The notes under the pieces: model-generated
Database searches by the model: none
Told to the model about the DNA's origin: nothing
Seen by the model: only the letters and a program-made list of their open reading frames with translations
Shown: positions 2,587-53,978 of the stretch, in pieces
How positions within the stretch are numbered: position 1 is the first letter of the stretch
How the letters are laid out: every line of letters begins with the position of its first letter
IMG/VR virus record: IMGVR_UViG_3300025362_000477
Origin: a virus
Taxonomy: Duplodnaviria; Caudoviricetes
Direction: 5' to 3' (one strand)
DNA length: 64,000 nt
Made by a program: the position numbers and the translations under genes

Positions 2587-3765
2587 TTGATGGATGGAAT
2601 AAAGAATAAATTTAAAAGGAATATTATGCTCAAATGTAAAATATGCAATTCTGAATTTGATAAGAGTTTTCATTTATCTATTCATATCAAACAGAAACAC
2701 AATATACCAATTAAAGACTATTATGATAAATACTATAAAACAGAAGATGAAGGTTTTTGTAAAACATGCAGAAAAACAACCAAATTTCAATGTATGACTA
2801 ATGGATATATTACATATTGTTGTAATAGATGTGCTGCGATGGATAAAGATTTACAAAAAATAAAAAAATCAAAAATGAAAGTTCATTATAGAAATGGATC
2901 TATCCAAAAGAAAACCAAAGAAACATGTAATGAACGGTATGGTGTAGATAATCCATCTCAATCTAAAAAAATAAAAAATAAAAAGAAACAAACATTCCGA
3001 CAAAATTATGGAGTTGATAATTGTTTTCAACATCCAAAAATTCAAGAAAAATCAAAAGAAACATGTTTAGAAAAATATGGCGTAGAATATTCAGGATCAT
3101 CACCAATCGTACAGAAAAAGAAAAAACAAACATGTTTAAAAAAATATGGAGTAGAACATTATTCTGAAACAGATGAATACAAAGAGAAAATCAAACATAC
3201 ATGTAATGAACGGTATGGTGTAGATAACGTATTTGAATTAGATGAAATTAAAAAAAAATCCAAAGAATCATGTCTTAAAAAATATGGTACGGAATTTGCC
3301 TCACAATCAATAATAGTAAAAGATAAATCAAAAGAAACATGCATGTTGAAATTTGGAGTTGATAATCATGCTAAGACTTACATAGCAAGATTGAAATCTA
3401 GAAACATGCTGATTGAACGAATTAAAAAAGAAAATGGAAATAAGATAAATCCGATGAGAGGTAGTGGTGAAAAACCATGCTTTGATGAATTAGAAAAACA
3501 TATCCCATTTAAAATCGATAGAGATTTTACTAAAATTGGTTACTTCCCAGATGGATTCATTCATGAACTTAATTTAGTGATTGAATTTGATGAACCTGAA
3601 CACCAGTCTAGAGAATGGTATAAGGAACATGATATGAGGCGGAATTCTGATTTTGAAAAAATTGGTTATGAAACCCATAGAATTAAAAAAATCAATTGGG
3701 ATGATGATCCCAATAAATGTATAAAGAAATTCAAAAATATAATAACAAAATTAGACGGAGAATGA
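2587..3765 (+). CDS. free-standing putative homing endonuclease (same family as 258..1412)
   Basis: CKIC...H...H, many KYGVE/RYGVDN repeats, YFPDGFIHELNLVIEFDEPEH. Likely start MLKCK at 2626. Confidence 0.8.
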   Translation: MMDGIKNKFKRNIMLKCKICNSEFDKSFHLSIHIKQKHNIPIKDYYDKYYKTEDEGFCKTCRKTTKFQCMTNGYITYCCNRCAAMDKDLQKIKKSKMKVHYRNGSIQKKTKETCNERYGVDNPSQSKKIKNKKKQTFRQNYGVDNCFQHPKIQEKSKETCLEKYGVEYSGSSPIVQKKKKQTCLKKYGVEHYSETDEYKEKIKHTCNERYGVDNVFELDEIKKKSKESCLKKYGTEFASQSIIVKDKSKETCMLKFGVDNHAKTYIARLKSRNMLIERIKKENGNKINPMRGSGEKPCFDELEKHIPFKIDRDFTKIGYFPDGFIHELNLVIEFDEPEHQSREWYKEHDMRRNSDFEKIGYETHRIKKINWDDDPNKCIKKFKNIITKLDGE

Positions 3766-4944: not shown

Positions 4945-5484
4945 TCATCCTTTCATTAATACCATCGGTTTAATAGCAGCCATGAACTTGGGCTTATCAA
5001 AGAATTTACCAGGACATGCATTATCTTTATCCTGAGATACTTCATTATGAAGAAATATATGCCCAAAAGGTATTGAAAACCATTTCATAACAGACGCAAC
5101 TGATCGATAACCTATCTGTTGATATGCTCGTTGTGTTGGTTGAACTAATGAATAATTACCAGCTATTGCTATATGAATAGAAACATCAAATTCAGAAGGG
5201 ATATCATCATATATACATCGATAACAAAATGGAGTACACATTACAGTTTCATAATCCTGATCTATTTTATCACAAAGAAAATGAAAAGGCATATCAAATT
5301 CATCATTAAATATCCAATTATAACTTCTAAGATATGCACTTACTGATTTCTTAGAATCAACTTTAGCCCTATCCAAATCTCCAAATCGACAAGATAGATC
5401 ATGAATAATAATATATTTAAACTTTCGTGTTGTTTTCTTGAAATAAACAGGTTTATATGGAACTATCATGCTATATCCCCTCAA
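4945..5484 (-). CDS. N-acetylmuramoyl-L-alanine amidase (Amidase_2-like endolysin)
   Basis: YIIIHD, FHF, IAIAGNY, FLHNEV...CPG zinc-amidase pattern. Confidence 0.75.
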   Translation of the reverse strand: MRGYSMIVPYKPVYFKKTTRKFKYIIIHDLSCRFGDLDRAKVDSKKSVSAYLRSYNWIFNDEFDMPFHFLCDKIDQDYETVMCTPFCYRCIYDDIPSEFDVSIHIAIAGNYSLVQPTQRAYQQIGYRSVASVMKWFSIPFGHIFLHNEVSQDKDNACPGKFFDKPKFMAAIKPMVLMKG

Positions 5485-26398: not shown

Positions 26399-26665
26399 CT
26401 ATTGATTTTGTATAATGTTAATAATTTTCACAGAATTTAAATTTTTTAAAAGAGTTGAAGTATCAACTATCTTATCCAATGAATCATTTAAAATAACTGG
26501 TAATTGTTGACTTGTGTTCAATTTAGTTAATGCCCGTTTAATTTTCAAAATTTTGACATCTCCAAATGAACCTTTTTTCAGTTCAACATAAGGAATATCA
26601 GGTAAAAATTTTTTAGCTATTTTACATGATTTACAATTTTCGATACCAACGATAATCATCATCAA
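26399..26665 (-). CDS. glutaredoxin-like protein
   Basis: IVGIENCKSC (CxxC) and QQLPVIL; near the RNR. Confidence 0.6.
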   Translation of the reverse strand: MMMIIVGIENCKSCKIAKKFLPDIPYVELKKGSFGDVKILKIKRALTKLNTSQQLPVILNDSLDKIVDTSTLLKNLNSVKIINIIQNQ

Positions 26666-27714
26666 CCACCATATTCTGAAAGAGCTTTAACTAATAAACC
26701 TTCAGCAACTGCTGTTAAGGGATCATCAGCCATACGAACATGTTTCACATCAAATGCAAAATCCTCTTTATATTCTGTTAATACCTCATTAAATAAAGGC
26801 AGGAATCCAGTAGCAAGTGAAGTTCCACCACTAACAATAATAGAAAGAGATTCAGGTAAATCAATATTATCAGTAACTTGATTTAATTTCACTTTAATTT
26901 GATCGAGTGAATAACGAATCATCTCTCTATAATAATAAACAATCGCTTCCCTAGTACGTCTTTCTTTCTTACCACCAATAGTAAAATTCTGGAGGTCAGT
27001 ATTACGTTCTTTAATAGCAGTAATTCTATTAGGTACAGTCCCCATTGAATTAGCTACATTTTCATCAATCCAATCTCCAGAACGAGCAACACTAAATGTT
27101 ACAACTGGAACGCTCTTATACGCGAGACACACATTGACCATACCCGCGCCAAATGAAAATGATAATCCAGTAAATTGATCATCTTGACAATGACTGTATA
27201 TAATAGCCATAGCTTCATTGAATGATTGTGCTCGATATCCGAGATCAGAAAATATTCTATGAAATACACCTTCATGATATGTTATATTATTTTTAGAATC
27301 AATTGATTCAGCTGGTACACTATATATACAATGACCATCATTTGTTGTACCAACTAATTTCTTTATAATCAACTCTAAAATATCAAGACTATCAATCTCA
27401 CTTGGAGATATTAACCCTTTTGACATAGGTCTCTTTACACTCTTCCCAAATATATTGCTAAAATTAAAAGCATCATTTCCAATAATATAAACGGAATCAT
27501 CAGTCTCAACATAGTCTATATTTGATAGCTCTGCCATGGGTACTTGACTTTTATCGAGAGGTAAATACATATTTCTAATAGATGAAATTTCAGCAGATTT
27601 ACCTTTAGGTTCAGCCAGTACTATATTCATAGTCCCACAATCAACCGCGATAATACGAGGTGGTTTCGGAGCTGTTAGATCTACAACTTCTGATTTTGTT
27701 TTCTTTTCAGGCAT
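26662..27714 (-). CDS. actin-fold ATPase (MreB/MamK/ParM-like)
   Basis: Phosphate-1 VDCGTMN, PMSKGLI, FNEAMA connect-1, SFGAGMVN phosphate-2, SGDWID, VSGGTS adenosine motif, DPLTAVAEG connect-2. Confidence 0.85.
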   Translation of the reverse strand: MPEKKTKSEVVDLTAPKPPRIIAVDCGTMNIVLAEPKGKSAEISSIRNMYLPLDKSQVPMAELSNIDYVETDDSVYIIGNDAFNFSNIFGKSVKRPMSKGLISPSEIDSLDILELIIKKLVGTTNDGHCIYSVPAESIDSKNNITYHEGVFHRIFSDLGYRAQSFNEAMAIIYSHCQDDQFTGLSFSFGAGMVNVCLAYKSVPVVTFSVARSGDWIDENVANSMGTVPNRITAIKERNTDLQNFTIGGKKERRTREAIVYYYREMIRYSLDQIKVKLNQVTDNIDLPESLSIIVSGGTSLATGFLPLFNEVLTEYKEDFAFDVKHVRMADDPLTAVAEGLLVKALSEYGG

Positions 27715-28624
27715 TTATATTCTCCAAGGTAGATTTAAATTCACTTATTACTAAATTTTTATTTTGTTCCCATTTATTCTTTTTAATTCTTATACACTTG
27801 AATCCATATTTCATATAATCCTCATCTTTCTGAATATCATAAGGTTTATATGTTTCATAATTATCAATAAAATGATGACGTTCATCAAATTCTATTACTA
27901 ATTTCAATTCTTCAATATACCCATCAGGAAAATATCCAATCATTCGTGGATTTCGAATTATTTTATATTGAGTATGTTTTTGTATCTCATTCAAACACGG
28001 ACGTTCCATATCACCAATATTTGGCATCAATGGTTCACCATTTAATTTTTGCATTTCAACTCTATTGATTGCTATATTTCTTAATTTCAAACGAACAGAA
28101 TATATTTGACTTGGATTTTCTACTCCATATTTATTCATGCATGTTTTCTTCTTTTTCTCTTTGATATATTTAGATTTATTAGGATTATCAACACCATATT
28201 TTTTTAAATATGAATATTTTTTTTTCTGTTTTATTTTTTCTAATTGATTTGGATTTTCTACTCCATATCTAAACATGCAAGTATCTTTTTGTTTCTGCCG
28301 AATCTCAATATTCTCACTTGGTGATCCACACCCAAATCTATCATAACAAGTTATTTTAAATTTATTCCGAACTATCAATGAATTTGAAGAACATTTATTA
28401 CTACAATATATTCGATAACCACTTACTATATTTTGATAGTATGTAGGATCCCCACATACAAGACATATATCTTCATTTTCTTTTTTAAGATATTTATCAT
28501 AATATTCTTTAGATGATAAATGATGTTTTTGTCTAAAATGAGAAACTAAACCTTTCACTAATTTAAATTCTTTACTGCAAATTTTACATTTAAGATCCAT
28601 TCTTCTCTGCCATAGTAGCACCAA
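27707..28624 (-). CDS. free-standing putative homing endonuclease (family of 258..1412)
   Basis: CKIC...H...H, KYGVENP repeats, YFPDGYIEELKLVIEFDERHH. Likely start 28600. Confidence 0.8.
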   Translation of the reverse strand: MVLLWQRRMDLKCKICSKEFKLVKGLVSHFRQKHHLSSKEYYDKYLKKENEDICLVCGDPTYYQNIVSGYRIYCSNKCSSNSLIVRNKFKITCYDRFGCGSPSENIEIRQKQKDTCMFRYGVENPNQLEKIKQKKKYSYLKKYGVDNPNKSKYIKEKKKKTCMNKYGVENPSQIYSVRLKLRNIAINRVEMQKLNGEPLMPNIGDMERPCLNEIQKHTQYKIIRNPRMIGYFPDGYIEELKLVIEFDERHHFIDNYETYKPYDIQKDEDYMKYGFKCIRIKKNKWEQNKNLVISEFKSTLENINA

Positions 28625-33663: not shown

Positions 33664-34128
33664 TTAATGAACGTCCAATACTTTTAAACAAAAAGATGGA
33701 ATTACACCATCAGAACATTCAATAGCAGTCCGAGGTAAAGAATTTAAATCATCCTCATTAGCAATCATAGATGATAATTTTTTAGAGTATTTAACTAATA
33801 TCTTTTCAATATCAAACTCATCTAATGTACCCTTTTCCCATTCAAAATTAACCGGTTTAATAATAACCTTCTGATCTTTAATCTTTGATAATTTAGATGC
33901 AGATATTTTAACAGGAGTATGACTTTCCAAATATCCAGAATATTTATTTGGAGGTATCCTAGTAAAAAATGCAGTTATAGATCCTTCTTCTCCACATGAA
34001 AGACCATTTTCCTTAATATCTTCTATTTCATCATTTGATATATAAGCATAAAGATATGGTTTTATTATAAGCATATCAATATTTGGATCACCTAGTACAA
34101 TTTCTGAAATTATTTTATATCCGTTCAT
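33664..34128 (-). CDS. hypothetical protein
   Basis: Co-oriented ORF with RBS. Confidence 0.65.
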   Translation of the reverse strand: MNGYKIISEIVLGDPNIDMLIIKPYLYAYISNDEIEDIKENGLSCGEEGSITAFFTRIPPNKYSGYLESHTPVKISASKLSKIKDQKVIIKPVNFEWEKGTLDEFDIEKILVKYSKKLSSMIANEDDLNSLPRTAIECSDGVIPSFCLKVLDVH

Positions 34129-35137
34129 TATTAATTACCTCTTTAAATTTTTGTATAATAGGTTCTGAATCAGATAACCATTCAGATTCTTTGATTCTAA
34201 AAACTATATAACCTAAATCATTATAAATTTCATTCTTTTTTTTATCATGTAATATGGCCCATGGTTTTCTATGATATGATTCATCAATTTCAATTATTAA
34301 ATCTAAATGTTCAACTAAACCATCAGGATAAAATCCACCTATAATCTGATTTCTCAAAATATTATTTTGCACAATAAACTGTAACTGCTCTATTATGATG
34401 TCTTCATTCAATCCTTTACCAGGAAATCCAAATATGTTAAATCTTGCGAAATTTTTACGAGCAATATCTTTACATTTATCTGTTTTAGAATAATTATCAA
34501 CACCATATTTTTTAAGACATGATTTTTCAATTTTCAATCTAATAATATCTGAACCAAATCCAACTCCACCATATTTTTTTACACATGATAATTTTTGTTT
34601 TAATTTAACCTCTTCTGATTGATTCGGACTGGATGTACCATAATTTTCAAGTGATGTTTTTTTACTTTTATTCTGAATTATTTTAGATTGTAACGGACAC
34701 TCTACACCCCAATTCTTTATAGATGTCTTAATTTTTTTATGTTTTACAATAATTGATTGAGATGGGTTGTCTACTCCATATCGTTTATTACATGTTATTC
34801 TATTTTTTAACAAACATTCTTTGGATCTACATTGACATTTTCTACTACAGTAATCATAATACCCATACCGATAACCTTTAAAATTAGTCAAAGATCCGCA
34901 CGTCAAACATATTCCATCGTTTTTTGTTTTTATAAATTTATCATAATAATCTTTCATTCTAAATTTATGACATTGAAATAAATGTGCCGCAAATCCCCTA
35001 AGATCATTTATTTCATATTCATCACATATTTTACATTTATCCATGATCAAACACCACATTAGGAATAGCTGATCTTTCAAATTTCTCGATAGTTCTATCA
35101 TAAATCTCTTTCCCATCTTGATATAGCATATCACCAT
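34115..35137 (-). CDS. free-standing putative homing endonuclease (family of 258..1412)
   Basis: CKIC...H...H, YGVDNPS repeats, FYPDGLVEHLDLIIEIDESYH. Likely start 35044. Confidence 0.8.
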   Translation of the reverse strand: MVICYIKMGKRFMIELSRNLKDQLFLMWCLIMDKCKICDEYEINDLRGFAAHLFQCHKFRMKDYYDKFIKTKNDGICLTCGSLTNFKGYRYGYYDYCSRKCQCRSKECLLKNRITCNKRYGVDNPSQSIIVKHKKIKTSIKNWGVECPLQSKIIQNKSKKTSLENYGTSSPNQSEEVKLKQKLSCVKKYGGVGFGSDIIRLKIEKSCLKKYGVDNYSKTDKCKDIARKNFARFNIFGFPGKGLNEDIIIEQLQFIVQNNILRNQIIGGFYPDGLVEHLDLIIEIDESYHRKPWAILHDKKKNEIYNDLGYIVFRIKESEWLSDSEPIIQKFKEVINNERI

Positions 35138-43342: not shown

Positions 43343-44084
43343 ACATCTCCCACCATTTTTTAATGTAAGCTATAGTATTACATGATCTAATTGTTGGATT
43401 AATTGGATTCCTAAATTCACGTTCATATTTATTTATAATTGAATGATTTGCATCTGATATAAATGGGACAAATATACCAATACTAAACAATACTGCACAT
43501 TTTCTAAAGCATGCAGAACATTTCATACATTCATCAGTAATATATGAATATCTATCACCATCCATAAAATAATGATATGATTGTTTAGGTGTGGGATTAA
43601 AACAAGAAAAGGTATCTTTTAACAAATTCATCTTAAGTGCCGGATGATTACATGAATACCAACTGATCATATCAGATTTATAACAATTATAAAAGGGAGA
43701 ATCGATCTCACAATAACTCTTATTGACATTTGTTAATAGACGTGATACATCTCTACATACTTCAAATTTATTGTCACCAATCCTATCTGATAGTGACCCA
43801 CCCAACCATACTTTATCATAACCCAATGAATTCGCATATATAGTCATTAAAAGATTTCTATTTGGAATATGAGCATCATCGCATTCAATAGTTTGAAAAT
43901 TAAGATCTTCACAGAATCTCATATTACTTATATTTAAAGATTTAATCTTTTCAATCTCATTCTTACAATATCGACCCTTATGATTGAAATATAAACAATC
44001 AAATTGATGTCCATTATCTAAAAGATACTGTCTAGCGATAAAACTATCCAATCCACTGCTATAAAGTAAACATTCTTTTCTCAT
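43326..44084 (-). CDS. queC: 7-cyano-7-deazaguanine synthase-like PP-loop ATPase
   Basis: LLYSSGLDS, HIPNRNLL, K..MI, SCFNP...CMKCSACFRK zinc site. Confidence 0.82.
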   Translation of the reverse strand: MRKECLLYSSGLDSFIARQYLLDNGHQFDCLYFNHKGRYCKNEIEKIKSLNISNMRFCEDLNFQTIECDDAHIPNRNLLMTIYANSLGYDKVWLGGSLSDRIGDNKFEVCRDVSRLLTNVNKSYCEIDSPFYNCYKSDMISWYSCNHPALKMNLLKDTFSCFNPTPKQSYHYFMDGDRYSYITDECMKCSACFRKCAVLFSIGIFVPFISDANHSIINKYEREFRNPINPTIRSCNTIAYIKKWWEMCDGES

Positions 44085-45129
44085 TTATAATCTCCTTAAA
44101 AATATCTATTATATTATTTCTATTTTGTTCCCAGTCTCGTTTTTTGATTCTAAAAATTTGCAAACCTTCACTTAGATAATCATGATCCTTTCGAATATCT
44201 TTATCTATATAAATTTCCCAACCATCTAAAAAATGTTGACTCTCATCAAATTCAATAACTAATTTTAACTCTTCAATATATCCATCTGGAAAATATCCAA
44301 TTATTTTATGATTTCTTTGAATTTTTAAATCAGTATATTTTTGTAATTCGTTTAAACATTGTCTTTCATCATGACCTATTCGTGGACATAATGGTTCACC
44401 ATTAAGTTTTTGAGCCTCAATAAAAGAAATAGCAGAATTCCTACATAACATTCGACCTTCATCAGTCTTAGTCCAATGATCAACTCTATAACGTAATCTA
44501 GATGATTCTTTTTTCTTTTCTTTCACATAAGGTATTTGGGAAACATTATTCACACCATAAATTATATTACATGTATTTTTAGCTTTTAATCTAGATTTAA
44601 CATAATCTTTCCTTAATGAACTATCTCTTAATTTTTTCTTTACTATTGATGATTTTGAAACATTATCAACTCCATATTTTTGAATGACAGTTTTTTTTAT
44701 TTTTAATTGAATTTCCGCATTTCCCAGTGCAGATTTACAACCAAATCTTTTAATACATGTAATATATCCATTTTGTTTAATTTGATCATTCTGGTATGGC
44801 CGATTAACTCCATATCTATCTTGAAAAGTTTTGATCTGTTTAGACATTATCTCTTTATTTTTCAAATGATGTGTTTCACCATATCTTTGAATGTTAGTAG
44901 CTATATGTTTGTCTTTTACATCTTGAGAATTAGCAGAACATTTACGACTACAATATTTTGAATATCCACCAAGTCCATTAAATGTAGTATCGTTCCCACA
45001 TTGAATGCATTTTCCATCACCCGGTTTCAATAAATATTGATCATAATAATCTTTAAGATGAATTTTATGAGTTCTAATAAGATGAGTTCCTAGAGCCTTA
45101 TATTCTTTACCACACAGTTCACATTTCAT
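44059..45129 (-). CDS. free-standing putative homing endonuclease (family of 258..1412)
   Basis: CELC...H...H, YGVDNVS repeats, YFPDGYIEELKLVIEFDESQH. Confidence 0.8.
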   Translation of the reverse strand: MKCELCGKEYKALGTHLIRTHKIHLKDYYDQYLLKPGDGKCIQCGNDTTFNGLGGYSKYCSRKCSANSQDVKDKHIATNIQRYGETHHLKNKEIMSKQIKTFQDRYGVNRPYQNDQIKQNGYITCIKRFGCKSALGNAEIQLKIKKTVIQKYGVDNVSKSSIVKKKLRDSSLRKDYVKSRLKAKNTCNIIYGVNNVSQIPYVKEKKKESSRLRYRVDHWTKTDEGRMLCRNSAISFIEAQKLNGEPLCPRIGHDERQCLNELQKYTDLKIQRNHKIIGYFPDGYIEELKLVIEFDESQHFLDGWEIYIDKDIRKDHDYLSEGLQIFRIKKRDWEQNRNNIIDIFKEIINEKRMFTL

Positions 45130-45205: not shown

Positions 45206-45604
45206 TCACAACTGTAGAGATTTGATATATTTTACAGCATCATCTACATCAGAAACAATCATATGTACATGAGCTTCAATCCATAAATCTCCTTGACATA
45301 TTTCATTAGGGTTTATAACAATAACAGGAATAGTATTTTGTAAGAATGCATGATATATTTCCATAGCTGTTCCAAAACTAGGTCTTTCAATATAAGCAAT
45401 TACTACATCACTTGAATTGATTAATGCTTTATCTCTAGGAACCATAGTTAAATCACATTCATTTGAAGGATCGGGATCTATAAACTCATAACGACCATCT
45501 AAATCATCTACAAAATTATCACACAATCTAGCTTTCCATGTATTAGCAGGTTCTTCTTCATATATAGTACCTGCTAAATAAACTCTTATCTTTTTATCAT
45601 TCAT
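45206..45604 (-). CDS. nucleoside 2-deoxyribosyltransferase-like protein
   Basis: VYLAGTI, FIDP, RDKALINSSDVVIAY, SFGTAMEI. Confidence 0.8.
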   Translation of the reverse strand: MNDKKIRVYLAGTIYEEEPANTWKARLCDNFVDDLDGRYEFIDPDPSNECDLTMVPRDKALINSSDVVIAYIERPSFGTAMEIYHAFLQNTIPVIVINPNEICQGDLWIEAHVHMIVSDVDDAVKYIKSLQL

Positions 45605-45903
45605 AATTCAATCCTTTGATTCAGCTCATTCAATGATGAGTTTGCATTATGATATCTCTGCCACCATAACATCATCGCTCTATTCGCAATGTCATGGAGG
45701 TGCAAGCAATCTTGATCAAGGTGCTGTATAAAGGCATCAGCCTTTAAATCTTTAGCGATATGATCGGCATAAAAAGGGTCATCCCACCCTCGATATCCCT
45801 GCGCGGCCTTTTCGTATAACCTAAATCGCATATCTTCTGTGAAAAGCGATAATGCTTTGTCAATCTCTCGACACTCTTTTGTATATGTTTTTTGTCTTGG
45901 CAT
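45601..45903 (-). CDS. cassette gene: small all-alpha phage protein (possible NTP-PPase-related)
   Basis: F.EDM..RL.EKA..GY.GWD...HDIANRAMMLW; reads through the relic core ATTATGA at 45646. Confidence 0.6.
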   Translation of the reverse strand: MPRQKTYTKECREIDKALSLFTEDMRFRLYEKAAQGYRGWDDPFYADHIAKDLKADAFIQHLDQDCLHLHDIANRAMMLWWQRYHNANSSLNELNQRIEL

Positions 45904-45925
45904 CTCTTTATTCTCCTGAACTTAA

Positions 45926-46004
45926 TCATAACAATTGAATGGAGAACTACCTCCAATCCGCTCGTTCCTCGCTCCTTTACGGAGTCTCATTCATGGCGTT
46001 CAGT
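45926..46004 (+). other. attC-1 (79 bp, complete)
   Basis: R'' TCATAAC-5nt-L'' AATGGAGA ... L' TCTCATT-6nt-R' GTTCAGT; left arm AAT[G]GAGA[A]CT[A]CC pairs with GGAGTCTCATT. Confidence 0.88.
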
Positions 46005-46231
46005 GTACTGAATGCAATCTGCACGAGCGATGGGTCCGCATCGCGGAACCGTGACGCCATCGTACCTTTCAGCCTTATTGTGACAACAAGCCTGCCGTGG
46101 TCTTCGTCCTCGAATTGAACCACATCACCAATGACGGGACGCACCGAACAAGATGCTGGACAAGTACCCAAAGGGGCCCTGTTGATCTCATTCATAGCCT
46201 CTCCGCTTGTACACTCATTATACTTTTTCAT
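45977..46231 (-). CDS. cassette gene, hypothetical
   Basis: Start MKKYNE at 46231 lies inside the attC-2 loop; ends LNAMNETP* inside attC-1. Confidence 0.65.
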   Translation of the reverse strand: MKKYNECTSGEAMNEINRAPLGTCPASCSVRPVIGDVVQFEDEDHGRLVVTIRLKGTMASRFRDADPSLVQIAFSTLNAMNETP

Positions 46232-46269
46232 AAATTCCCCCTTTGGGACTGTCAGCATTAGCGTTATAT
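46143..46269 (+). other. attC-2 (127 bp, complete)
   Basis: R'' ACCGAAC-5nt-L'' GCTGGACA ... L' TGTCAGC-6nt-R' GTTATAT; GCT[G]GACA[A]GT[A]CCCAAAGGGG pairs with CCCCTTTGGGACTGTCAGC. Confidence 0.9.
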
Positions 46270-46465
46270 GATTATAAAATCCTTGAACTCATTGATTATA
46301 TAATCAGTTTGGCTCGTTCCTTTAATATCTTGCAAATCATCAATCACAAAACTGATTGTTTTTGTGCACCTTTGCAACATGTATTTCAATCGTATTGCGG
46401 ACTAACGCGATATGAATCGAGTCAGCGGTTAATGATTCTTTTAATTTCAAAATTTCTGTTAACAT
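46264..46465 (-). pseudogene. cassette gene with a 1-nt frameshift (not in ORF track)
   Basis: GGAG RBS + ATG at 46465 (MLTEILKLKES...) to the TAA inside the attC-2 core spans 202 nt = 67 codons + 1. Confidence 0.55.
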
Positions 46466-46483
46466 TCCTGCTCCCTCATTTTA

Positions 46484-46541
46484 AGATAACAAAAACATGC
46501 ACCGTACGGCGTACTGCCGGCATGCGATGTTGGTGTTATGT
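46484..46541 (+). other. attC-3 (58 bp, right arm degenerate)
   Basis: R'' AGATAAC-5nt-L'' CATGCACC GTACGGCGTAC ... GTTATGT; left arm shared with attC-6. Confidence 0.75.
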
Positions 46542-46768
46542 TATTTAATCTCAATTCGTTTGCCACAAAACGGGCAGAATTTCCAATCCTGTTCTTTTGG
46601 CCCGAAATCCTCAAACCAATAATTAGCACCATAGCTTGTTTGCCAGTCGTTGGATTCTGGTTGATTTTCCCAGACCCAACAATCTACTGAGCAAGTACCC
46701 GAATGGGCTGTCAGAGGGCAATCGTCACGTCTTATCATATCACCTTTATCATTGTATGTTATTCGCAT
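46541..46768 (-). CDS. cassette gene: small zinc-ribbon-type phage protein
   Basis: WQTSYG...WKFCPFCGKRI; start lies inside the attC-4 loop after GGAG. Confidence 0.7.
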   Translation of the reverse strand: MRITYNDKGDMIRRDDCPLTAHSGTCSVDCWVWENQPESNDWQTSYGANYWFEDFGPKEQDWKFCPFCGKRIEIK

Positions 46769-46813
46769 TTCAACTCCTTGTCCCCTTTGGGACTGTCAGC
46801 ATTAGTGTTGGGG
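46674..46813 (+). other. attC-4 (140 bp, related to attC-2)
   Basis: R'' ACCCAAC-5nt-ACTGAGCA AGTACCCGAATGGG ... CCCCTTTGGGAC TGTCAGC-6nt-R' GTTGGGG. Confidence 0.8.
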
Positions 46814-47034
46814 AGAATTGGTGTCCGCCCGCACGCTCTCCAAAATGCATCCAGTTGTTCCAGCGTTCGGAACTTCATTTCTCCGTAGGTGTTATCTGTT
46901 TCTTCGACGCACTCGATTACTGCATTAAGTGTGCCCCATAAACGGCAAGCTATTGTGCCTGATCCGCAAACGCCTCTAGTTGATTTTAAATCTTCCTTGG
47001 CATTTAATATTCGCAACTTTAATCTATCTTTCAT
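46759..47034 (-). CDS. cassette gene, hypothetical
   Basis: GGAG RBS; C-terminus PNTNADSPKGDKELKCE is read through the attC-4 right arm. Confidence 0.65.
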   Translation of the reverse strand: MKDRLKLRILNAKEDLKSTRGVCGSGTIACRLWGTLNAVIECVEETDNTYGEMKFRTLEQLDAFWRACGRTPILPNTNADSPKGDKELKCE

Positions 47035-47120
47035 AATATTCTCCTTTTGGGGCTGTTTTTGGTTGTTTGTTTTCGTTGCTCATAATTCATTCTCTCCGGT
47101 TGTGCTGGCTCCCGTTGTCC

Positions 47121-47140
47121 GGTGAGCCAGAGCGTTATGA
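47121..47140 (+). other. attC-5, right half only
   Basis: L' GGTGAGC-CAGAGC-R' GTTATGA; no matching left arm found. Confidence 0.7.
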
Positions 47141-47341
47141 ATTTTTCAACCCTCTAATTTTACCAGCAATCTCTCGCAGTTCATCCGATTTAACTAAAAA
47201 ATCACCTTCAACGTAAGCCATACTCTCTTTAATGGCTTTACGTTGCTCGTTTTCGTATTTCATGCCTTGAATATCGCAACATACCGCTGTGCCCTCAATT
47301 GCGAGTGCTTCAAATTCTAAAGCTCTTTCTTCTCTACTCAT
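47135..47341 (-). CDS. cassette gene, hypothetical helical protein
   Basis: AAGGAG RBS and MSREERA start at 47341; stop TAA lies inside the attC-5 core. Confidence 0.7.
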   Translation of the reverse strand: MSREERALEFEALAIEGTAVCCDIQGMKYENEQRKAIKESMAYVEGDFLVKSDELREIAGKIRGLKNS

Positions 47342-47361
47342 ATTGTTTCTCCTTAATTTTA

Positions 47362-47426
47362 AGATAACAAGCACATGCACATGCACCGTACGGCGTACCA
47401 CAGACAGGTGATGCTAGGCGTTGGGT
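47362..47426 (+). other. attC-6 (65 bp, with a 6-bp duplication in the left arm)
   Basis: R'' AGATAAC-AAGCA-(CATGCA)-CATGCACC ... L' GGTGATG-CTAGGC-R' GTTGGGT. Confidence 0.85.
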
Positions 47427-47698
47427 TTAATAACATCATCCAGCATCCACCTTGCAAGCGCGACTACAGAGCATCTCTCACAATGCGATACGGCTTGGCA
47501 GTCGCACGGTCTTGGCTCAAAGCGCGTTAGCAAAAATTCCGCTGTTCGCTTGGCTGCTATGTGCCAGTGGTCTGGATGAAACTGGCACATAGGGGTACAC
47601 TTTCTTTCGCATCCAGCGCAATGCTCTGAATGCCTACCCAACAAGTCAGTCGAGCATACCTTTTGGGGCGTTTTCGGTTGTTCGTTTTCTTTACTCAT
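47414..47698 (-). CDS. cassette gene: Cys/His-rich putative zinc-binding protein
   Basis: HCAGCERKCTPMC...CDCQAVSHCERC; N-terminus reads through attC-7, C-terminus PNA* lies in attC-6. Confidence 0.7.
   Translation of the reverse strand: MSKENEQPKTPQKVCSTDLLGRHSEHCAGCERKCTPMCQFHPDHWHIAAKRTAEFLLTRFEPRPCDCQAVSHCERCSVVALARWMLDDVIKPNA
47636..47655 (+). other. attC-7, left half only
   Basis: R'' ACCCAAC-AAGTC-L'' AGTCGAGC; R'' is the exact complement of the attC-6 core GTTGGGT. Confidence 0.7.
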
Positions 47699-48492
47699 AA
47701 TCTAAACGCTTCACTCGATAAAAAATTTGTTGCATTTTTTCCTTCTGAAAATTCATATATTGGGATATTATACTTAATACATATTGGTGTAAGAAGGATA
47801 TTGGGGAACGTAAATAACTTCTTACTACTTGTAATATAATTAACGATCATTTGATTATCTTTTGTTATAACATGGTTGATATTAGTTAATTTCTTCAACC
47901 TTAATACATCAGAATAAGGCAGTATCTTATTAACATCTCCTATTAAACATATTATATAATCATTAAATCGTTTTGATATCTGTCCAATACATTTGAAATC
48001 TATTCTATTTCCGTTATTACTGTTTTCTAAATTAATAGTTATGAAATCTCTATGAAGTTTAATATCTTTTGTTTTATCTATATCAACAGATATTATTTCT
48101 TTAACTTCAATCTCCTCTAATATAGTTGGTGCTTTTTCCTTTGGTGTTGGTATAACAGCTGGCCGATCTATTTTTTCATCTTCTGTTCTATTATCAGACT
48201 TAATATAATTTTCAATACATGCACCATTATGTATATCTTTACCACATCGTTCACAAAGATTTTTCTTCTTTCTATAACTTATAATAGTTTCTTTTTTTCT
48301 TTCTCTTTTTAGATCCAATTGCACTTCTGGAGGTTCTGGTATCCCTCTCATATCAGACTTAATATAATTTTCAATACATTCACCTTCATGGATATCTTTA
48401 CCACATCGTTTACATAATCCTTTACGTTTTCGATGACCAATAATCACAGCTTTTCTAAGTCTTATTTTCTGTTCAGCTTTTGTTTCGCTCAT
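47695..48492 (-). CDS. hypothetical protein with a duplicated CxxC...H...C motif
   Basis: LCKRCGKDIHEGECIENYIKSD and LCERCGKDIHNGACIENYIKSD. Confidence 0.7.
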   Translation of the reverse strand: MSETKAEQKIRLRKAVIIGHRKRKGLCKRCGKDIHEGECIENYIKSDMRGIPEPPEVQLDLKRERKKETIISYRKKKNLCERCGKDIHNGACIENYIKSDNRTEDEKIDRPAVIPTPKEKAPTILEEIEVKEIISVDIDKTKDIKLHRDFITINLENSNNGNRIDFKCIGQISKRFNDYIICLIGDVNKILPYSDVLRLKKLTNINHVITKDNQMIVNYITSSKKLFTFPNILLTPICIKYNIPIYEFSEGKNATNFLSSEAFRL

Positions 48493-52989: not shown

Positions 52990-53151
52990 ATGAAAAATAA
53001 TCAAATAACTATTGATATTAATCCAGACATTCGATATGCAGCTAAATTATTAGCTAAAAAATTTGATGTATCTTTAAAATATATTATTCGTATAGCATTA
53101 ATTGATATTTTGAAAAAACATAATTGTGATATTCCCGTGGAAGAATTATGA
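52990..53151 (+). CDS. 53-aa ribbon-helix-helix-like protein (not in ORF track)
   Basis: MKNNQITIDINPDIRYAAKLLAKKFDVSLKYIIRIALIDILKK...; AAGGA RBS; ATGA overlap with the next gene. Confidence 0.7.
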   Translation: MKNNQITIDINPDIRYAAKLLAKKFDVSLKYIIRIALIDILKKHNCDIPVEEL

Positions 53152-53978
53152 AATTATGTGAATGCGGTTGTGGTAAAGAAGTTAATTCCAAATCTGCTCG
53201 ATTTATATCTGGACATAATATTAAAAAAGGACATAAATGGAAACCAAGAACTGATGAACATGCTAAAAAAATTATAAATACTAGAGTTGAAAATAAAAGA
53301 TTATTTGATTTAAATATTCCGTTTTCATTATGTAAATGTGGTTGTGGGAAACGAGTTTCAAAAAGAACTAATGTTTATATTGAAGGTCATCATCCTAGAA
53401 TCGCAGGGTTTAAAGATCATAAACATAGTCAAAAAACTAAAGACTTATTTTCAAAAATTTATAAAAGCCAAGAATTTAAAGATAAAGTATTTAAAACTAT
53501 GATTGATCGTTATGGAGTTAAACATGCTTTTCAAAATCCAAAATTTATTAAAAAAGCTAATAAGACTTATTTTGAAAAAACAGGATATCATAATCCATCA
53601 AAAAATCCTTTAGAGATCGCAAAAGCTTTAAAGACTAGAAGAAAAACTAATTTAGAACGAGGTATTTGGATACCAGATGATCAATTACCTATGTTTCAAC
53701 TTTACTATAGAAGAGTGTGGCATTATACCAATATAGCAGCGAAGTTAAAATATGATGATGAAAAATTATCAAAAAGAAAACTATGTGGTGTTAAAAATGG
53801 TTTACAATTAGATCATAAGTTTTCTATTCGAAAAGGATATGAAAATAATATTTTACCGCATATAATAGGTAGTCAATACAATATCAATTTAATTTCATGG
53901 GAAGATAATAGATTAAAAAATATCAGTTGTTCTATAACAAAAGAAGAACTTTTTGAACACGTTAACAAGGAAAACTAA
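53148..53978 (+). CDS. putative homing endonuclease (CxCGCG + NUMOD3-like + HNH-like)
   Basis: Two CxCGCG...GH units, KHSQKTK, LQLDHKFS...NLISWEDNRLK. Confidence 0.75.
   Translation: MKLCECGCGKEVNSKSARFISGHNIKKGHKWKPRTDEHAKKIINTRVENKRLFDLNIPFSLCKCGCGKRVSKRTNVYIEGHHPRIAGFKDHKHSQKTKDLFSKIYKSQEFKDKVFKTMIDRYGVKHAFQNPKFIKKANKTYFEKTGYHNPSKNPLEIAKALKTRRKTNLERGIWIPDDQLPMFQLYYRRVWHYTNIAAKLKYDDEKLSKRKLCGVKNGLQLDHKFSIRKGYENNILPHIIGSQYNINLISWEDNRLKNISCSITKEELFEHVNKEN

Follow-up and report, generated by a model that had tools for sequence, protein, structure and literature searches.

A probable integron-type gene-cassette array between two genes of a salt-lake jumbo myovirus

Introduction

Clusters of attC sites that lack a neighbouring integrase (CALINs) have been documented in phage genomes, including those of virulent phages, and their attC sites are recombined by IntI1 (Qi, Rajabal, Ghaly, Tetu and Gillings 2023, Front Microbiol, PMC9892861). 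In classical integron arrays, crossover takes place between the G and the TT of a GTTRRRY core site (PMC3518468, PMC5027507); on the attC top strand, extrahelical bases occur in the AAC arm, and it is the bottom strand that is expected to fold better (PMC5027507). IntI can also insert cassettes into ordinary genomic DNA at attG sites (Loot et al., bioRxiv 10.1101/2022.09.11.507474).

Here we analysed a 64,000-nt stretch of viral DNA (the window), in which the segment 45646-47701 probably represents a gene-cassette array of the integron type in which no integrase is seen, that is, a CALIN, lying in a decaying state between two phage genes. Like the published phage CALINs (PMC9892861), it is a row of attC-bounded small-gene cassettes in a phage genome with intI not nearby, and GTTRRRY-like motifs stand at its boundaries. 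It differs from them in its carrier, an uncultured salt-lake jumbo myovirus of at least 230 kb, in having all seven genes antisense to attC, in that three or four of its sites contain a leader peptide together with a start codon and ribosome-binding site, and in being fused into a phage operon by ATGA overlaps. As in classical integron arrays, 7-bp R''/R' boxes with AAC/GTT enclose imperfect palindromes of 58-140 nt, the sites are chimeric, with an R' tail from the next cassette, and the first six bases of a cassette complement its own R''. In contrast to those arrays, IntI, attI and the Pc promoter are absent from view, the genes are inverted relative to attC, some sites are truncated, and the partnership of gene and attC varies between homologous cassettes.

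Results

A cassette row flanked by phage genes

Seven small-gene cassettes follow one another in an AT-rich jumbo myovirus from salt-lake metagenomes, whose genome spans at least 230 kb. The GC content of this island was 40-55%, compared with about 30% across the phage genome, and its flanks consisted of phage genes (family B DNA polymerase, baseplate, amidase and QueC). No tyrosine recombinase domain was detected among the 60 window ORFs scanned, and phage genes occupied the places where the intI and attI of a complete integron would adjoin the array. We classed the array as a CALIN and not as an integron because neither intI nor attI lies beside it (60 window ORFs). Five sites, attC-1, -2, -3, -4 and -6, fell within the length and box range of attC (about 57-141 nt; R'' ending in AAC, R' starting with GTT), with lengths of 79, 127, 58, 140 and 65 nt, respectively; attC-5 and attC-7 are truncated half sites.

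Rfam 15 gave no attC-type match for the island, either at the gathering score or at E values up to 10, and island DNA had no match in 50,697 phage records. The phage genes I and A, used as queries, found no relatives in viral contigs, and the ancestral empty site was therefore not recovered. Further assemblies of the phage carrying the array were identical. Four salt-lake runs yielded short identical contig pieces only, and cassette-level polymorphism was not seen in them; one joint reported from these runs, with 21 nt only on one side, was probably spurious.

Sites and genes of the array

Other metagenome contigs contain related arrays that have genes B, D, F and H and site families in common with the window, and these are cited below by their locus numbers. 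In the window, the attC sites lie on the + strand and the genes on the - strand. Every 7-mer of the preliminary description was found in the sequence, and at its coordinate.

The left boundary of cassette 1 is a relic R' box, ATTATGA (45646..45652, + strand), with the crossover between 45646 and 45647. Gene B, the 100-aa cargo of this cassette (45601..45903, - strand; ORF list and translation), has a homologue, P0006, in array L006 that is 71% identical; its last 15 codons cross the relic and continue into AT-rich DNA, ending in a stop that shares an ATGA with the start codon of phage gene A. The 79-nt attC-1 (45926..46004, + strand) has R'' TCATAAC at 45926, positionally homologous to a box of L006, and R' GTTCAGT at 45998. 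A motif of this site recurs in L004, in the site lying upstream of the H homologue. Were CCTGAAC at 45915 taken as the R'' of attC-1 instead, it would match the site's own R' at 6/7.

Gene C, the 84-aa cargo of cassette 2 (45977..46231, - strand; ORF list and translation), stops 20 nt past the cassette boundary, within attC-1, and its ATG at 46231 is preceded, at a distance of 7 nt, by the ribosome-binding site AAAGGGGG. This ribosome-binding site falls, together with the ATG and about 29 codons of the gene, within the loop and arm of attC-2, a long leader-type site of 127 nt (46143..46269, + strand; R'' ACCGAAC at 46143, R' GTTATAT at 46263; repeats D7 and D10), whose R' marks the precise point where homology to the L011 D cassette ceases. 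Alignment with the 72-aa homologue in L011 showed that gene D, the cargo of cassette 3 (46340..46465, - strand), has been shortened to 41 aa by a 17-bp deletion. The 58-nt attC-3 (46484..46541, + strand; R'' AGATAAC at 46484, R' GTTATGT at 46535) forms the best hairpin of the island and belongs to family F1, which is present in five other contigs.

Gene E, the 75-aa cargo of cassette 4 (46541..46768, - strand), showed a weak zinc-ribbon match. It is followed by attC-4, a leader-type site of 140 nt (46674..46813, + strand; R'' ACCCAAC at 46674, R' GTTGGGG at 46807) that also encodes the last 16 codons of gene F, the 91-aa cargo of cassette 5 (46759..47034, - strand; homologue in L014). The leader-type attC-5 (47046..47140, + strand) has lost its R'' side and retains R' GTTATGA at 47134; an orphan leader ORF of 19 codons starts within it at 47083, and a repeat, D4, relates it to attC-7 (47046-47086 and 47661-47701, 83% identical).

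Gene G, the 68-aa cargo of cassette 6 (47135..47341, - strand; ORF list and translation), precedes attC-6, a 65-nt member of family F1 (47362..47426, + strand; R'' AGATAAC at 47362, R' GTTGGGT at 47420) with a 6-nt internal duplication. Gene H, the Cys-rich 94-aa cargo of cassette 7 (47414..47698, - strand), takes its first 21 codons from the leader of attC-7 and shares an ATGA with phage gene I, whose stop overlaps the start codon of H; its homologues in L002 and L004 begin just past their own box. The leader-type attC-7 (47636..47701, + strand) is the right end of the island, where R'' ACCCAAC at 47636 and the leader are kept and the loop end, L' and R' are lost.

Boxes pair across the genes in the window

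In the model considered here, a cassette would consist of TTxxxx, a small gene on the opposite strand, and an attC (R'' ... G). Recombination would cut between the G and the TT of R', so that the six bases after the G would belong to the next cassette and would complement the R'' of that cassette, not that of the resident site. The matches reported earlier for this offset register were reproduced exactly: 6, 6, 6, 5, 5 and 7 out of 7, the last between the R'' of attC-7 and GTTGGGT at 47420. Cassettes 4 and 6 fit poorly, at 5/7 each, and attC-5, which is without an R'' box, was absent from the earlier pairing list. The same-site scores were likewise as claimed: 4/7 at each of attC-1, -2 and -6, equal to the offset score at attC-3, and at attC-4 6/7 where the offset pairing reaches 5/7. 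This makes attC-4 the sole site that fits its own R' better than its offset partner.

Counting only the four variable positions after GTT, boxes facing each other across a gene agreed at 18/24 positions, compared with 9/20 for the boxes of one site. In the permutation check that had been proposed, the real pairing was the maximum (18) of the 720 possible pairings (mean 12; P=0.022). Chance agreement among a few similar AT-rich 7-mers, picked post hoc, is one conceivable source of the window matches: there are six pairs only and few box types (two GTTGGGT, two GTTATCT), removal of the relic reduced the agreement to 14/20 (P=0.067), a match as good as that of the relic (6/7) should arise randomly about 0.7 times per 300-nt search (estimated from base composition in AT-rich DNA), and the alternative attC-1 R'' (CCTGAAC, 45915) fits its own R' at 6/7. 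Against this stand random GTTNNNN 7-mers drawn from the island, which averaged 6.1/24 and never reached 18 in 50,000 draws. By itself, the window gives modest support for the offset pairing, with marginal statistics. In-silico circularisation, also proposed earlier, had a weak outcome: the predicted gain in folding appeared in four of five sites (0.1 to 3.8 kcal/mol) and failed at attC-4, which folded worse by about 5.

Related arrays follow the same register

We repeated the comparison in homologous arrays, where 19 independent cassettes agreed at 67/76 positions, compared with 28.8±4.6 for shuffled partners (maximum 49 in 100,000 shuffles) and with 33/96 for same-site boxes, the choice of boxes in these loci being partly steered by the matches themselves. 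In L006, six consecutive cassettes had perfect 7/7 pairs; this contig contains 12 exact pairs of GTTNNNN and its reverse complement, where 2.7 were expected, and six of them tile the consecutive cassettes. The boxes around gene H differ between arrays yet match within each one (GTTGGGT/ACCCAAC in the window, GTTAGAA/ATCTAAC in L002, GTTGGCG/CGTCAAC in L004). The offset interpretation put forward earlier thus gained its support from these 19 cassettes (67/76, 28.8 expected). On comparison of these sequences, the offset register is a general property of the cassette family and no one-window fluke, and the decisive evidence for it lies in the related arrays, not in the window.

Homology breakpoints pointed the same way. 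Between the window and the independent copies of the B cassette in L006 and the D cassette in L011, homology ended exactly at the predicted x|TT crossover, for D at ATATAA|C. The relic aligned with the box of the L006 B cassette, which is intact and reads TCATAAC on the gene strand, and homology decayed immediately beyond it. A 6/7 match alone is expected by chance about 0.7 times, and the relic is convincing only because of this homologous cassette; the eroded core that had been predicted at 45646 coincides exactly with the position of the intact box, where homology stops. The rule kept at 67/76 positions, and the positional homology of both the relic and the attC-1 R'' to L006 boxes, leave chance highly improbable as an explanation of the window matches, and together with the B and D breakpoints the related arrays effectively refute it. 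The offset rule and these breakpoints at x|TT also support the earlier proposal that the units once existed as circles and were inserted site-specifically, a history that we infer.

Alignment of nine family F1 sites showed conservation from AGATAAC to ...GCGTT that stops at the R' tail, whose four bases all differ. The homologues of genes B, H and F have different attC bodies in different arrays; gene and attC are therefore not inherited as one block, contrary to a simple model. Motif scans found no F1 members in IMG/VR, and blastn of an F2 site against plasmids gave nothing meaningful. Matches in L010, L012, L016, L018 and L021 from motif scans were set aside as chance matches.

The genes are antisense to their attC sites

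The F1 alignment bore out the earlier choice of the + strand as the attC top strand, as it has a constant R'' and a variable R' tail on the window + strand only. With the top strand so placed, all seven genes run antisense to attC, and the usual co-oriented layout is not found. In most integron cassettes the gene is co-oriented with its attC, and the cassettes here could be real and of this ordinary kind, with the gene strand as the attC top strand, attC downstream of the gene, and the R'' and R' labels swapped; in that case each following cassette would receive a start codon and leader peptide from the long site before it. Besides this general usage, many ORFs end in or just past the 3' box, like ordinary cassette genes, attC-3 has an extra base (C) on the AAC arm of the gene strand, and the offset test is blind to orientation because the same box pair is compared either way.

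Such an arrangement predicts the reverse of what was seen in family F1, where the box 5' of the gene is constant (GTTATCT, 8/9) and the box on the other side takes 8 distinct forms. The B and D homologies end exactly at xxxxAA|C, and an attC follows neither in the window (B) nor in L011 (D). All six leader-type junctions are in frame, with the G at three different codon positions, which under the ordinary orientation would take strong selection or a chance event of 1 in 729. Folding, too, favours the gene strand, as a bottom strand should: it was the more stable strand in 4/5 window sites and in 11/12 F1/F2 sites. In family F2, the 5' arm of the + -like strand has an excess of two unpaired bases, and F1 sites are nearly symmetric; the placement of extrahelical bases is clear for F2 only. 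A folding-energy scan of all AAC...GTT pairs did not separate the sites from random coding-region pairs, and we therefore relied on comparative evidence. As the F1 alignment and the breakpoints of B and D speak against it, the gene-sense orientation of attC was dropped, and we regard it as unlikely.

Site-specific cassettes or repeat-bounded modules

T4-type phages are reported to shuffle small genes between repeated promoter/stem-loop motifs (PMC2839356). Like the PeSL cassettes described for these phages (PMC2839356, PMC4122927), the present array consists of accessory small genes flanked by stem-loops in a hyperplastic region of a large myovirus, with modular exchange. The array might be no integron product but a set of small-gene modules with 7-bp terminal inverted repeats (GTTxxxx ... 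xxxxAAC), moved by another enzyme or by recombination of PeSL-type regulatory hairpins. The conserved B module indeed extends from one box to the other, and the site bodies beyond them are unrelated, in the window and in L006, and all contexts seen are phage-like, with an integron integrase in none. As described, PeSLs are near-identical promoter/terminator repeats with stem-loops that recombine by homology, without AAC/GTT boxes, and do not predict offset complementarity; the offset register and the mixed site families would argue against PeSL. Homologous recombination between repeats does not produce an offset register, and the D module was inherited with the adjacent half of its attC. Invariant AAC/GTT, sites of 58-140 nt, imperfect palindromes and crossover before TT form a specific attC/IntI signature, and a transposase-like gene lies near none of the arrays. 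We consider such modules quite improbable and retain integron-type cassettes as the preferred explanation.

The ends of the array

The base preceding TT is not G but A at the relic, the left end in the window, and T at the equivalent end in L011. With A before TT, the left end is no canonical G|TT junction, and an integrase is therefore not required for insertion of the array into the phage. Insertion of the attG type could explain an array between two phage genes; attG sites, however, keep G at -1 (5'-GWT-3'), whereas in the window A precedes TT at the left junction and attC-7 is cut off internally at the right end, so that a clean attG junction is found at neither end. The segment 45608-45645 showed marginal similarity to the 3' part of attC-5 (P=0.02). 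Entry of the island as a circle opened at TCATAAT, a 7-bp motif at both ends (45601 and 47695), was discarded as speculation; TCATAAT occurs 39 times in the window.

Discussion

We propose that the cassettes were once circular and were moved by an IntI-type tyrosine recombinase, which the host, or another part of the phage genome of at least 230 kb, could have supplied. The array would now be decaying, as suggested by its two truncated attC sites, the G-to-A change in the relic, the 17-bp deletion in gene D and the two cassettes with imperfect offsets. The cassette genes would be expressed from the leftward transcription of the phage, because they have good ribosome-binding sites and ATGA overlaps with phage genes I and A. 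More tentatively, and with somewhat less than even expectation, the array described here and those in L006, L011, L014, L015 and L017 may constitute a phage-adapted integron variant, in which the genes are antisense, attC supplies the ribosome-binding site, the start codon and a leader of 20-30 codons, expression within phage operons is free of Pc, and cassettes are exchanged among saline-lake phages by a candidate recombinase.

The offset rule is textbook integron biology, and phage CALINs were already published in 2023; this array is another such case, and the 7-mer observation itself is a confirmation of known biology. The offset register is a cheap test, requiring the sequence and nothing else, that distinguishes true integron-type cassettes from look-alike hairpins, and it works here. 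A large lytic-type phage of salt lakes probably gained seven accessory genes via the integron cassette pool, which is more evidence that phages share that pool, and the uniformly inverted genes, together with the translation starts inside some attC sites, suggest a route to expression without an integron promoter.

An integron-like array in a jumbo phage genome

Between phage genes A (45206-45604, left flank) and I (47695-48492, right flank) lies a 2.1-kb island of 40-55% GC in an AT-rich window (GC ~30%). Its genes B-H are seven small genes, all on the minus strand and each with a good ribosome-binding site, and ATGA stop/start overlaps connect the island to A and to I. Imperfect palindromes with AAC...GTT ends sit between and inside these genes. 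The palindromes have the structure by which attC sites are recognized, and the array falls outside the definition of a complete integron; on these two grounds it is a CALIN, an attC cluster without integrase. Qi et al. 2023 described 17 CALINs from phages, virulent phages among them, and found that IntI1 recombined 5 of the 6 phage attC sites tested (PMC9892861).

The window encodes a family B DNA polymerase (only ~29% identical to T4-like and jumbo phage polymerases), a RecA-like protein, a baseplate spike domain, an amidase, QueC and ThyX, together with many DUF7487/DUF559 endonuclease-like genes. Because of this gene content, a 230,269-bp contig that also carries one protein of the island, and the presence of window DNA in salt-lake metagenomes, we conclude that the window is part of a jumbo myovirus. 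At 26662-27714 there was a strong Pfam match (E 5e-72) to Volactin, an actin-like family, in a phage otherwise bacterial in look, with a peptidoglycan amidase at 4945-5484. Six dispersed DUF7487 paralogues (258-1412, 2587-3765, 27707-28624, 34115-35137, 44059-45129 and 53148-53978) resemble homing endonucleases; five carry an additional DUF559 or MTES_1575 nuclease domain, and one lies beside the island, 77 nt from gene A. Gene I contains a 99-nt direct repeat (48187-48285 and 48346-48444, 80% identity), so that a segment with a CxxC...C motif is encoded twice.

Box pairing within the window

In G|TT crossover, the downstream cassette contributes the bases that follow the G (PMC3518468; PMC5027507). 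The preliminary description had proposed that each R'' box matches the R' box at the left boundary of the same cassette, as a footprint of integration. Every cited 7-mer was found in place and all box-pair scores were reproduced. Scored over the four bases after GTT, the sole variable ones, boxes facing each other across a gene were identical at 18/24 positions and boxes of the same site at 9/20; random GTTNNNN 7-mers drawn from the island averaged 6.1/24. Cassettes 4 and 6 reached only 5/7 in the offset register, and attC-5, which has no R'', had been missing from the list of pairs. The real pairing reached the maximum score among all 720 pairings (P 0.022), a result that weakened to P 0.067 without the relic box ATTATGA at 45646. 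When each site was refolded with the tail from its own cassette's left boundary, the predicted benefit of circularization appeared weakly: four of five sites folded better, by 0.1 to 3.8 kcal/mol, and attC-4 folded ~5 kcal/mol worse. Taken alone, the window sequence is thus suggestive of cassette integration.

Homologous arrays support the integration footprint

With proteins H, B and F as queries, relatives were recovered on other metagenome contigs, and a scan with a motif common to attC-3 and attC-6 added five further contigs. These related contigs hold small genes in arrays, with sites of the window's families between them: F1 (AGATAAC ... GCGTT), F2, a long leader-type family and a family with the 14-nt motif of attC-1. 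Across 19 cassettes on seven contigs, boxes facing across a gene were identical at 67/76 variable positions, a count to be read with the matches themselves having helped locate some boxes; shuffled partners gave 28.8±4.6 and reached at most 49 in 100,000 shuffles, and same-site boxes matched at 33/96. One related array (L006) had perfect 7/7 pairs in six consecutive cassettes, and its region contained 12 exact box pairs versus 2.7 expected. Gene H occurred in three contexts with three differing box pairs, each self-matched, a case of covariation. The offset register as a footprint of cassette integration is therefore supported, mainly by homologous arrays rather than by window statistics.

The relic had been offered as an eroded core predicted by the same rule. 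Because a 6/7 match is expected ~0.7 times by chance per 300-nt search of window-like DNA, this prediction alone carries little weight. The L006 B cassette, ~82% identical to window B from ribosome-binding site to gene end, bore it out: the intact L006 box TCATAAC (gene strand) aligns exactly with the window TCATAAT and similarity decays directly after, so the relic is real. Similarly, the window D cassette is ~90% identical to a cassette in another contig (L011), and this identity stops exactly at ATATAA|C, which in the 46263 box is the x|TT point. The L006 B homologue (3132-3400) has an in-frame TGA in place of the window TGC (Cys), and its frame remains intact for 21 codons past the TGA, up to the attC box.

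All recovered contexts of the cassette pool were viral in look, and none showed an integron integrase. In L001-L003 and L011, phage-like contigs, related cassettes adjoin PD-(D/E)XK/DUF2800 nuclease genes, with a neighbour gene that is DNA methyltransferase-like by eye and without a Pfam match.

Orientation of genes and attC sites

Because the boxes compared in the offset test are the same on either strand, the test cannot orient the sites. The assignment of the plus strand as attC top strand was backed by four other lines of evidence, on which the usual layout, with each gene upstream of its own attC, was rejected. First, nine F1 sites share a conserved block from AGATAAC to ...GCGTT on the plus-like strand and all differ in the four bases after GTT, as G|TT crossover predicts for an R'' of the site's own and an R' tail from the neighbouring cassette. 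Second, the B and D homology breakpoints lie at the G|TT crossover, with no attC on the far side in either case. Third, all six leader-type junctions seen are in frame with the G at three different codon positions; a constant frame is automatic only if leader and gene belong to one cassette. Fourth, the gene-sense strand folds more stably at 4/5 sites of the window and 11/12 sites of families F1 and F2, and more stable folding has been reported for attC bottom strands (PMC5027507). Extrahelical-base placement supports this orientation for F2, and in F1 sites it is nearly symmetric. Because these lines reverse the usual layout, all seven genes are most probably antisense to their attC sites.

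Leader-type sites (46143-46269, 46674-46813 and 47636-47701 in the window; 4396-4512 in L006; 214-316 and 737-839 in a further contig, L015) hold the start of the adjacent gene, with its ribosome-binding site, its ATG and 20-30 of its codons, and therefore unrelated proteins have a common N-terminal stretch (AP.G...CSV-like). On mRNA, this ribosome-binding site would pair within a ~25-bp stem, which hints at translational control or at coupling with the ORF upstream: gene F overlaps the start of gene E by 10 nt. A 14-nt motif, GCGAGGAACGAGCG (gene strand), is common to attC-1 (45955-45972) and a site upstream of an H homologue (L004, ~105-125), and in Rfam this stretch matched Enterococcus-1 RNA weakly, below threshold.

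Decay and entry of the array

Several features show the array to be decaying. AttC-5 lacks its R'' side and attC-7 its R' side (their leader segments are 83% identical), the relic has A in place of G, the offset match of cassettes 4 and 6 is down to 5/7, and gene D (46340-46465) has a 17-bp deletion relative to its L011 homologue, shortening it from 72 to 41 aa, and is a pseudogene. A search of 60 window ORFs turned up no tyrosine recombinase domain. Other assemblies of the phage were identical, and public runs revealed no cassette polymorphism.

Both island ends differ from the canonical G|TT junction. The 7-bp TCATAAT (ATTATGA on the gene strand, ATG included) occurs at both ends (45601-45607 and 47695-47701) and in the attC-5 orphan leader (47080-47086), and could have served as microhomology when the array entered the phage, but the word is a common one, found 39 times in the window. 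The segment 45608-45645 was marginally similar to the 3' part of attC-5 (P=0.02). Loot et al. (bioRxiv 10.1101/2022.09.11.507474) showed that IntI can insert cassettes into genomic DNA outside att sites, at positions with a GWT core.

The offset finding is sound and its signature is already known; the more unusual features of this phage array are that its genes are apparently inverted and that translation starts lie within attC sites.
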